The notes under the pieces were generated by a model. That model was not told where the DNA came from, did no database searches, and worked only from the letters and a program-made list of their open reading frames with translations. A program made the translations under genes and the position numbers. This document shows positions 27,738 to 56,263 of a stretch of DNA of 64,000 nt, in pieces; the first letter of the stretch is position 1, and each line of letters begins with the position of its first letter. This DNA comes from Promethearchaeota archaeon (GTDB lineage: Archaea > Asgardarchaeota > Lokiarchaeia > Sigyniarchaeales > SOKP01). The stretch covers positions 448,001 to 512,000 of the forward strand of contig JBHLNF010000001.1 of the NCBI GenBank assembly GCA_048937405.1, written 5' to 3'.

Positions 27738-28235
27738 ATGCTTCTCACACTTACCTATTTTCATCAAATCAAAGGTCCAAATGTATTGATATCTTATCCT
27801 GATGTTAAATTAGAAGAAGATATTGTAAGTAGACTTCTTAAATTCTTTGATCTTGAAATTGAAGAAACTTTTTTTGAAATTGTACTAATAACAAAAAAAA
27901 AGAAAATTATCAATTTTCATTTTGAAATTCCATCTGAATGGGCACGAGGGAAGAAAGAATTTGCTATGCTCTCGTTGATAATGAAAAGAGAATATGAAAG
28001 CGAACTACTTTATGCCTTTATAGTAGACGCTTCTTACAAAATTCTTAAAACTAAAAATGTTTATAAGGCTCTTTATAAAGATGATGATTTTCGTAATAGT
28101 AATGATCTAGAAATCGATATTGCCTATGAACAAATAAGAAAAATCCTTTTTGACTGCTTAAATAGTTTAATTTCGAGAATAGAAGATAAAATTAAAGGTG
28201 TGAATAAAAAAGATCCTTTTCCATTCTCTAAATAA
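27738..28235 (+). CDS. uDENN/longin-like protein (folliculin/SMCR8-type motifs)
   Basis: YFHQIKGP..L..YP and FEIPSEWARG....LSLI. Confidence 0.6.
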   Translation: MLLTLTYFHQIKGPNVLISYPDVKLEEDIVSRLLKFFDLEIEETFFEIVLITKKKKIINFHFEIPSEWARGKKEFAMLSLIMKREYESELLYAFIVDASYKILKTKNVYKALYKDDDFRNSNDLEIDIAYEQIRKILFDCLNSLISRIEDKIKGVNKKDPFPFSK

Positions 28236-28269
28236 CAAAAATATTTTTAATTTAATTTTTCTATTATTA

Positions 28270-28520
28270 TATTGGGACTACGATGAAGGATTAATAGCGT
28301 CATCGAGGGCACATATGATGATCTATGATTATGTAGCGCAAGAGTACGCTTACACTTGAGTTGTTTAATCAGAAACATTCCTGAACAAATGGGCTCTTAT
28401 CCTAGCAATGGTATATCCCAATAGCAATGAAGTTAGAGTCAGTACCCAGACAGGATACATGATTATATCCCAAAAAGGCATAAAAATTAAACGCCTAGCA
28501 CGAGAGAACTATTTTGATTT
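28270..28520 (+). ncRNA. Candidate structured non-coding RNA, family unassigned
   Basis: About 40% GC by hand count over 28272-28470, in an AT-rich background. No substantial ORF; several hairpins and a C/D K-loop-like motif. Strand uncertain. Confidence 0.5.
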
Positions 28521-28587
28521 TATGGAAAATCCATTAAATGAGAAGAAAGAGTTAGTGTTTTAGGCAACAATAATATGCTGATTTTAT

Positions 28588-29058
28588 TTAAAGCATACCT
28601 ATAGAATCAGATTTGAATAATTCCTTCATTTCTTTTCCAAGTTCTGCTTGATCTGTATGCAAATATCTTTCTAAGATGGTTTCAAGCATTGGACCCCATT
28701 TTTTCATAGTAGCTCTTATAAATCCAATTTGTGCATTTTTATCCGTAACAATACACAAAACACCATCTCCTACTTTCATTGAAAATATCATTCCTTCAAG
28801 ATATTCTGTTATCTGAAGATCAATAGAACCATAACCTAAAATTTGTCCTTGTTCCTCACCAGCAACGAAAACAGCACCCCCTATTGCACCAATCTTCTCT
28901 ACAGAAATTCCATCATTATCAGAAAATTTGAATTTGGATTGACTTAAGATAGTTATTCCTGTATCATCGGTTAAAAGAGCATACTTTAATCCCGGAGCAC
29001 TATTGATAATGGTAGTTAAGATCTTTTTTAATCTAATCTCGTCTTCGGAATAATTCAA
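28588..29058 (-). CDS. Roadblock/LC7 domain protein
   Basis: PGLKYALLTDDTG, KIGAIGGAVF, QITEY..G, IGFIR. Confidence 0.85.
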   Translation of the reverse strand: MNYSEDEIRLKKILTTIINSAPGLKYALLTDDTGITILSQSKFKFSDNDGISVEKIGAIGGAVFVAGEEQGQILGYGSIDLQITEYLEGMIFSMKVGDGVLCIVTDKNAQIGFIRATMKKWGPMLETILERYLHTDQAELGKEMKELFKSDSIGML

Positions 29059-29819: not shown

Positions 29820-30773
29820 TTATTTATTTTGGGATTTTTTTAATGATATCCCAAGCTTAAGATTTTCTACAAGTTCACTGAAACGATTGCGAACTGTTAC
29901 TTCAGTTACACAACTGATACAAGCTATTTTTCTTTGAGTTCTTCGTTCTTTGGTTAAAATACATGAAGCATAAATCGCAGCTGCACAGACTCCTGTAGGA
30001 CCTCTCCCCGAAGTTAAACCACGTTCTTCTGCCATTCTAATAATTTGTTTTGCTATTTTTTGACATTTTGGAGGTAATTTTAACTCTGAAGTAAATCTTG
30101 TGAGATAATCTATAGGTCTAGTAGGATTTAATTCAAGTGATAATTCATGAGAAATAAACCTAAAAGAACGACCAATTTCTTTCTTGTCAACACGAGCTAC
30201 TTCAGCTATTTCATTTAAAGTCCGTGGAATTTTGAACATTCTGCAAGCTGCATATAAACTTGCAGCAGCTACACCTTCTATACTTCTACCACGAATCAAA
30301 TGGGCTTCAACAGCATCTCGATATATTTTAGCAGAACATTCTCGTAAATTTTTTTGGAGATCTAAATTGGAGGCCATTCTATCAAGTTCACTTAACGCAA
30401 ATGTGAGATTTCTTTCAGTTGCATCAGATACTCTAATACGACTTTGCCATTTACGCAATCTATAGATCTGTCCTCTTAATTTAGCAGGGATTTCTTTGCC
30501 AAAAATATCTCTATTTTTCCAATCTATCATTGTACTAAGCCCTTTATCGTGTATCATATAAGTCATTGGAGCACCAGTCCTTGTTCTCCTCTTTTTCTGA
30601 TCTGCATCAAATGCTCTCCATTCTGGTCCACAATCGATATGTTTTTCTGAATGAACTAAACCACACTTTTCACAGACTATTAATCCTCTATTTTCATCAA
30701 AAAATATATTTTCTCCGCATTCAGTACAAATATCACTTCCAGAAGATAAGCTTTCTTCTGCTTCTGATTTCAT
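29820..30773 (-). CDS. tfb: Transcription initiation factor IIB
   Basis: CTECG/CEKCG Zn ribbon, [33 protein letters not shown]. Confidence 0.97.
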
Positions 30774-30847: not shown

Positions 30848-31168
30848 CTAATTTATCTTAGTGAAGAATTCTTCATTTGGGGAGAATGATTGGTTCTGCT
30901 GAATTTTAATCGAGATGAAAGGAAAATCTATTGGACCAAAAATATCTTTTATAAATCCAATTCTTTCATATTTCTCATTATAAACTAAGTTTTTAAAAAT
31001 CTTTTCTAAACTCTTATTCCACTTTTTTGCTCTAAATATTTGATGTTTCTTGGTTGATTGTCCAATGTAGAATAAGTTCAATTTAACCCAGTTTTTTTTC
31101 AATAGATCCCCTTTAGAGTAGATAAAATTTAAAATTAAAATAAATGATGGTAGGTAATATTTAAACAT
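30848..31168 (-). CDS. gar1: H/ACA RNP subunit Gar1
   Basis: [19 protein letters not shown]; conserved archaeal gar1-tfb adjacency; true start probably internal. Confidence 0.75.
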
Positions 31169-56130: not shown

Positions 56131-56263
56131 GGCAAAGTGGCGTAGCCCGGAGTGCATTGGAATATTCCCGATGACGGGTAGGAACGCACTAGAATCATCA
56201 GAATTACTGATAATGGTGAAACTGAAGATCTAGGTATCGTGAGTTCAAATCTCACCTTTGCCA
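56131..56263 (+). tRNA. tRNA-Phe (GAA) with two non-canonical introns (56151-56181, 56193-56220)
   Basis: GGCAAAG/CTTTGCC acceptor stem and GTGAG-TTCAAAT-CTCAC T arm. Removing two BHB-type introns gives a 74-nt cloverleaf with CTAGA-CTGAAGA-TCTAG. Confidence 0.88.

Follow-up and report, generated by a model that had tools for sequence, protein, structure and literature searches.

The RNA locus

The locus is the gap between two convergent open reading frames, longin-like (27738-28235, + strand) and roadblock-like (28588-29058, - strand), in the 64 000-nucleotide stretch of DNA that was analysed (the window). The GC content of positions 28270-28520 is 37.8%, compared with 14-23% in five nearby intergenic stretches and 27.9% in the whole window; the gap is thus GC-rich, as stated in a preliminary description of the region (which gave about 40%). 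The absence of a meaningful open reading frame, stated in the same place, was also borne out. The longest + strand frame (51 amino acids, 28408-28563) is intact in only one of 47 homologues and the variability across these 47 sequences displays no codon periodicity, which argues for an RNA gene. The repeated motif TATATCCCAA that had been pointed out is present at 28412 and 28464.

In the alignment of homologues the conserved block extends over approximately 28243-28589, from a TATA-like box through a T-run. The TATA-like box (ATTTTTAA, 28243-28250, + strand) reads TTTATAA in most relatives, is preceded on its 5' side by an A-rich stretch and is located about 22 nt 5' of a UGGGA motif, with fixed spacing, in 45 of 46 homologues. 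This fixed distance places the RNA on the + strand with a start near 28272-28275. T-runs follow a UAUGC motif in most homologues, and the run at 28582-28589 (+ strand) is a probable terminator. With its ends deduced from the promoter and the T-run, the predicted transcript, a putative H/ACA guide sRNA with three motifs, would cover approximately 28272-28586 (+ strand, about 310 nt) and is conserved in the 47 sequences of the genus. The extent proposed previously (28270-28520) was too short: the element continues for about 65 nt past 28520, and a third hairpin (28493-28565), its ANA box and the T-run belong to it.

Conservation across genomes

Of 53 other genomes in the genus, BLASTN searches, which the preliminary description had suggested, located the element in 46, with 69-92% identity over about 330 nt. 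A covariance model was built from the 47 genus sequences and used to search the family, sampled as 130 genomes from 13 genera. Exactly one full-length copy was found in 118 of the 130, and at the level of the order full-length matches were obtained in 124 of 150 genomes. Five genomes belonging to two other families of the order contain full-length copies with weaker scores (54-77 bits); some of these other-family copies have a GC content of 55-58%.

Second, partial matches to the model were observed in three genomes (G086:C17:42360-42496, G017:C36:63200-63362 and G087:C124:1-179), the first of which lies 450 nt from the full copy of the same genome. They could be incomplete duplicates of the gene or single-hairpin H/ACA RNAs related to it.

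Fold and covariation

A structure model was built by hand and scored on a MAFFT alignment of the 47 sequences, using pairings with slid partners and 500 shuffles as controls. The proportion of paired cells was 87.5% (37-41% with the partners slid), the number of pairs with compensatory, two-sided changes was 32 (10-15 with the partners slid) and the number of compensated cells was 175 (18-51 with the partners slid). None of the 500 shuffles reached the observed pairing values. The single-sequence folding energy gave z = -1.18 for the + strand and z = -2.35 for the - strand. As the + strand folds no better than its shuffles, the evidence for structure is that of the comparison and not of the energy, and the strand was assigned from the promoter and from the polarity of the ANA boxes and K-turns.

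The model contains three hairpins. In each, a lower stem leads through an internal pocket to an upper stem that terminates in U.U, G.A and A.G, and an A-N-A box follows the hairpin. The tandem sheared G.A pairs are formed by a UGA (5' strand) and an AUGA (3' strand), conserved in all three. The A-N-A boxes, with invariant A's, are positioned 0-1 nt 3' of each lower stem throughout the order, and the stems of hairpins 1, 2 and 3 are compensated in distant homologues. Hairpins 1 and 2 have short lower stems, of 5-6 bp. The upper stems are all interrupted by a bulge or mismatch; hairpin 1 has about eight layers, hairpin 3 has 8-9 and hairpin 2 about ten. They exceed the 5-6 bp found between pocket and K-turn in active Pyrococcus motifs, a rule based on Pyrococcus only (PMC2377435).

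Further helices enclose the hairpins. UGGGA (28273-28277, + strand) pairs with UCCCA (28468-28472, + strand) to give helix P0, which may close a 5' domain holding hairpins 1 and 2; its support is conservation, with 97.9% of cells paired and zero compensatory changes. The closing stem proposed earlier, UAUUGGGA/UCCCAAUA, had to be abandoned, since it uses a UCCCAA copy found in this genome only; the conserved partner of UGGGA is the second UCCCA copy, at 28468-28472. The base of hairpin 1 is clamped by a fourth K-turn, in which a bulged, box C-like strand (CUAC-GAU-GA-AGG, 28278-28289, + strand; GA dinucleotide invariant) faces and covaries with a non-bulged, box D-like strand (CUU-GA-GUUG, 28355-28363, + strand). 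Double changes occur in all three of its NC-stem pairs and in two C-stem pairs.

Hairpin 2 stands on a basal helix formed by UAAUCA (28366-28371, + strand) and UGAUUA (28460-28465), 97.5% paired, in which one pair changes from AU to GC in two species and to GU in two. The basal helix of hairpin 3, GCAUA (28478-28482, + strand) with UAUGC (28574-28578), is 95% paired with no double change, and both of its strands are absent together in five species. Because of these closing helices below the ANA boxes, every ANA box is placed in an internal loop and not in a free tail.

Two of the stems listed in the preliminary description reappear in the model. ACAUA/UAUGU with its K-loop is the conserved upper stem of hairpin 1, a K-turn replacing the loop in some species, and GGCUCU/AGAGUC is the upper stem of hairpin 2, compensated in distant homologues. 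Four others (CGAUGA/UCAUCG, CAAG-GUA/UAC-CUUG, UGUUU/AAACA and AGUCA/UGAUU) clash with the covarying helices.

Proposed guide pockets and rRNA targets

The archaeal box H/ACA layout was taken as defined previously (PMC2377435, PMC7991803). According to the proposed mechanism, the lower stem and ANA box of each hairpin would be occupied by one set of Cbf5, Nop10 and Gar1, and its K-turn or K-loop by L7Ae. Each of the two pocket strands would pair with rRNA on one side of a single uridine, and Cbf5 would convert the uridine thus flanked into pseudouridine.

The target scan covered 1312 candidate uridines in 23S rRNA, 16S rRNA, SRP RNA, RNase P RNA and some tRNAs. Full 23S and 16S sequences were taken from other members of the genus, since the source genome and two relatives labelled 'complete' have gaps in their rRNA; the source genome itself contains the last 625 nt of 23S rRNA, which include the target site of hairpin 1, and no 16S rRNA was found in it.

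Several observations were made on the rRNA genes themselves. The 23S fragment of the source genome lies at a contig end (G000:C25:1-625), and a gap of 100 N is present in the single-contig genome G023 (G023:C1, approximately 871600-871700) where the 16S gene is expected. The rRNA operons of these genomes are largely unassembled, and the 16S and 23S genes are unlinked (about 55 kb apart in G069). The 3' part of the 23S gene matches in two pieces, about 130 nt apart in G041:C48 and about 780 nt apart in G045:C35, and the 23S genes of G069 and G041 exceed that of G047 by about 400 nt, which suggests introns or insertions in the 23S genes of some species of the genus.

Hairpin 1 (28296-28350, + strand) has the lower stem AGCGU/ACGCU; three lower-stem and five upper-stem pairs are compensated. 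Its pocket is formed by the 5' guide CAUCGAGG (28301-28308, + strand), of which UCGAGG is invariant also in the other families, and the 3' guide GCAAG (28338-28342, + strand), of which GCA is likewise invariant. The upper stem (ACAUA/UAUGU) contains the K-loop (28316-28329, + strand), which in one clade becomes a canonical K-turn (C stem AGC/GCU, bulge AAU, GA and U.U); the AUGAUGA..AUGA K-loop is a likely L7Ae site. The ANA box at 28352-28354 (+ strand) is ACA here and AUA or AAA elsewhere, both A's being invariant.

The two guides pair with the 23S sequence GGCUUGC-[U]U-CCUCGAUG through 8 + 5 bp. This sequence is identical in all ten 23S fragments of the genus and in another family, and the predicted substrate segment carries GGCUUGCUUCCUCGAUG. 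The invariant guide bases, UCGAGG and GCA, are exactly those that pair with 23S rRNA. Both target arms abut the upper stem, and the distance from the ANA box to the first 3' guide base is 14 nt; the rule for archaeal H/ACA motifs is 14-15 nt (PMC2377435). In the scan this site ranked first in 47 of 47 species, with a mean score of 28.3 (z = 5.5, minimum 24).

The predicted target of hairpin 1 lies in the peptidyl-transferase centre, at the helix 89 base, and is the uridine two positions 5' of CCUCGAUG; the predicted pseudouridine is accordingly written as the U in GCUUGC-U-UCCUCGAUG of 23S rRNA. For E. coli numbering we take CCUCGAUGU to be 2498-2506, which places the target at 2496. A BLAST search against E. 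coli genomes for this numbering returned no match, and the numbering therefore rests on established knowledge of rRNA together with a table of yeast modifications. According to that table, yeast Ψ2865 is guided by snR46 and yeast m5C2870 is equivalent to E. coli 2501 (PMC8307265); the offset is 369, so that Ψ2865 corresponds to the nucleotide targeted by hairpin 1. P. abyssi has three domain V sites that are highly conserved in eukarya, namely Ψ2549, Ψ2588 and Ψ2603, and Ψ2588 is guided by motif 1 of the three-motif RNA Pab40 (PMC2377435). Their spacing of 39 and 15 nt equals that of yeast 2826/2865/2880, from which we infer that Ψ2588 is the same site.

Hairpin 2 (28378-28456, + strand), an H/ACA-like motif, is composed of the lower stem UUCCUG/CAGGAU, pocket strands AACAAAUG and AGUACCCAGA, the upper stem GGCUCU/AGAGUC, a K-turn (28399-28406 with 28424-28434, + strand) and an apical hairpin. 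Its ANA box (28457-28459, + strand) is ACA, with AUA or AAA in some species, and A-N-A is kept across the order. Nine pairs show double changes. The lower stem is swapped wholesale between clades (UCCUG/CAGGA, GCAAAA/UUUUGC or CUGCA/UGCAG), and the upper stem is compensated in other families. The distance from the ANA box to the pocket is 16 nt here and 12-18 nt among clades; the 3' pocket strand varies in length and ACCCAG is lost in nine species.

No convincing target for hairpin 2 was found in 16S rRNA, 23S rRNA, SRP RNA, RNase P RNA or a few tRNAs, namely the seven returned by aragorn. At the equivalent of E. coli 2586, the target expected from motif 2 of Pf7 and Afu4, ACCCAG pairs on one side only. 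Other CUGGGU sites and a match in tRNA-Gly were rejected because the upper stem would have to melt. Hairpin 2 possesses all of the protein-binding features, with no recognisable target.

Hairpin 3 (28493-28565, + strand) has the lower stem GCCUA+GCAC/GUGU+UAGGC with a U bulge, and an apical hairpin whose stem covaries. The A-U pair beside GCCU/AGGC becomes G-C in five species; GCAC/GUGU is CCAU/GUGG in one homologue from another family and GCAU/AUGC in others, without the U bulge. As these distant homologues assign GCAC/GUGU to the lower stem, the pocket is small and consists of the 5' guide GAGAGA (28502-28507, + strand; GAGAG invariant) and the invariant 3' guide GUUA (28551-28554, + strand). 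The K-turn is formed by UUUUGA (28512-28517) and AAUGAGAAG (28537-28545), both on the + strand. The ANA box (28567-28569, + strand; ACA, with AAA in many species) follows AGGC after one base; its distance to the pocket is 16 nt when a bulge of 2-3 nt is counted and 14 nt in GC-rich relatives lacking the bulge.

The pattern UAAC-U(N1-4)-CUCUC occurs once in 16S and 23S rRNA together, in helix 69, where 0.003 occurrences are expected. Pairing of hairpin 3 at this site would comprise 4 + 5 bp and leave five bases, UAUA(A), unpaired. An alternative site in domain II of 23S rRNA, AGC-[U]G-GUUCUC at U1006, fits about equally, with canonical 4 + 6 bp, and requires that two closing pairs be opened. 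Judged from these complementarities, the helix 69 loop (E. coli 1915/1917), paired in an atypical UNUN manner, is the probable target, held with modest confidence; that hairpin 3 is directed to AGC-U-G-GUUCUC in domain II instead is a tentative second choice. A site at 23S 2622/2623 was rejected, as it needs a register slip in a CU repeat and fails in the clade that includes the source genome.

H/ACA proteins and genomic context

The source genome encodes Cbf5 (TIGR00425, 421 bits), and Nop10 and Gar1 were also detected above the cut-offs, the Pfam match of Gar1 being at G000:C7:478854-478997. The gar1 gene (30848-31168, - strand), upstream of tfb, lies outside the RNA as part of its context, 2.3 kb from the RNA gene. 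The RNA gene and gar1 are 2-6 kb apart in five of six genomes checked, one of another family; since the genomes checked are related, this linkage is a hint and not a test.

The tfb gene of the gar1-tfb pair occupies 29820-30773 (- strand). Elsewhere in the window an Rfam tRNA match was obtained at 56131-56263 (+ strand; 133 nt, 41 bits), which is much longer than a plain tRNA and so fits an intron-containing tRNA.

Identification of the RNA

A search of the window with Rfam 15 at gathering thresholds gave nothing at the locus. At E values up to 10, positions 28150-28650 gave chance-level snoRNA and miRNA matches only, and HgcG (RF00064) had no match at E values up to 10 at the locus or in the whole genome. 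The comparison with Rfam that had been proposed in the preliminary description therefore identified no family, even at this permissive threshold. SRP RNA and RNase P RNA are encoded on other contigs of the genome, so that the element is neither, in agreement with that description. Of its wording 'undescribed or highly divergent ncRNA', the second half holds, the RNA being unannotated, structured, divergent and unmatched in Rfam; the first does not, as its kind is known, since the anatomy and the rRNA complementarity assign it to the long-known class of archaeal box H/ACA guides. Full-text searches of the literature found no paper describing Asgard H/ACA guide RNAs.

Very probably, the gap contains an independent + strand gene whose product is a box H/ACA guide sRNA with three motifs and a length of about 310 nt. 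This identification is based on the conservation, the covarying fold, the ANA boxes, the K-turn signatures, the rRNA complementarity and the protein genes. Transcription, the transcript ends, protein binding and the pseudouridines are predicted from these features.

Comparison with known guide RNAs

The three-motif H/ACA sRNA named Pab40, Pf7, Pho40 or Afu4 (Rfam HgcG, RF00064; PMC2377435) occurs in Thermococcales and Archaeoglobus. Pab40 and the Loki RNA each combine three H/ACA motifs within about 300 nt. The 23S position predicted for hairpin 1 is, judged by the spacing, also that of Pab40 motif 1; motif 3 targets helix 69, as hairpin 3 probably does (with the alternative site available), and in both RNAs it is motif 2 that varies or is uncertain. 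The Loki RNA differs in having a fourth K-turn around hairpin 1, enclosed ANA boxes, longer upper stems and a GC content of about 36%. The likeness is one of layout and targets, without similarity to the Rfam model, and may reflect shared ancestry or convergence.

Stem-loop SL2 of Haloferax volcanii sR-h45 guides Ψ1940/Ψ1942 of helix 69 with an unpaired UNUN and ANA distances of 17 and 19 (PMC7075261). With its four unpaired target bases and long ANA distance, this helix 69 stem-loop is of the same style as the pairing proposed for hairpin 3, whereas sR-h45 has two hairpins and Ψ2605 as its other target, and the Loki RNA has three hairpins and the helix 89 site. The nucleotide predicted for hairpin 1 is also the one guided by yeast snR46 (25S Ψ2865) and its human orthologue (PMC8307265, PMC1766470). 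Unlike the Loki RNA, snR46 has the eukaryotic hairpin-hinge-hairpin-tail arrangement with H and ACA boxes, no K-turn, and Nhp2 in place of L7Ae.

Alternative interpretations

The extra K-turn, the enclosed ANA boxes, the upper stems, which exceed the length suited to the L7Ae-Nop10 contact of Pyrococcus, and the strongly conserved orphan hairpin 2 could together represent an H/ACA RNP architecture specific to Asgard archaea, in which the units are assembled in one particle and hairpin 2 is not a guide but acts in rRNA folding or processing, like snR30/U17. We regard this as improbable. If true, the architecture would be intermediate between the single-hairpin guides of archaea and the multi-domain snoRNPs of eukaryotes. 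The odd features deserve a structural look and leave the class assignment unchanged.

A more distant reading, and a very improbable one, is that the RNA is H/ACA-like only and binds L7Ae in another role, as a scaffold, an rRNA-folding chaperone of the snR30/U17 kind or an L7Ae sponge or regulator. Four K-turn-type motifs, a hairpin 2 without a target, unusually long upper stems, ANA boxes enclosed by extra helices and the failure of the Rfam H/ACA models to match would all suit such an RNA. Against it, a universally conserved rRNA site is complementary, in canonical geometry and with the ANA box at 14 nt, to exactly those bases that are invariant in hairpin 1, and this site is H/ACA-guided in yeast and Pyrococcus (PMC8307265, PMC2377435). 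The ANA boxes at all three hairpins are, moreover, kept across the order.

Box C/D sRNAs contain a C/D K-turn, C'/D' boxes and a guide of 10-12 nt ending 5 nt upstream of D or D'. The AUGAUGG-like box near the 5' end and the NNGA box after hairpin 1 might then make the element a composite C/D and H/ACA RNA that also guides 2'-O-methylation, to which we attach even less weight. The K-turn of 28278-28289 with 28355-28363 does covary, and Pab21 is a precedent for an archaeal H/ACA sRNA with an attached C/D motif (PMC2377435). However, the RNA contains no C'/D' pair, the D-like box is CAGA, CGGA or UUGA and not CUGA in most species, and there is no space for a guide of 10-12 nt 5' of this box, because the ANA box and the stem of hairpin 1 are located directly there.

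That there is no separate gene can practically be discarded. On this view the gap would be a decayed protein gene, or would serve the convergent longin-like and roadblock-like genes as a bidirectional terminator or structured 3' UTR, as the position and the terminal T-runs would allow. The element, however, has a conserved TATA-like box of its own at constant spacing, is retained in several relatives in which the flanking genes differ and is conserved far beyond what a terminator needs; the 51-residue frame is intact in one homologue of 47 and codon periodicity is lacking.

Significance

The identification as a box H/ACA guide annotates, for an entire family of Loki-type Asgard archaea, an RNA gene that is missed by Rfam-based pipelines. 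The prediction that follows is that pseudouridylation at the helix 89 base, guided by snR46 in yeast and by Pab40 in Pyrococcus, is RNA-guided in those archaea that are most closely related to eukaryotes as well, and this predicted guidance supports an ancient origin of the guide-target pair. The alignment and the covariance model provide a starting point for the remaining Asgard H/ACA repertoire.
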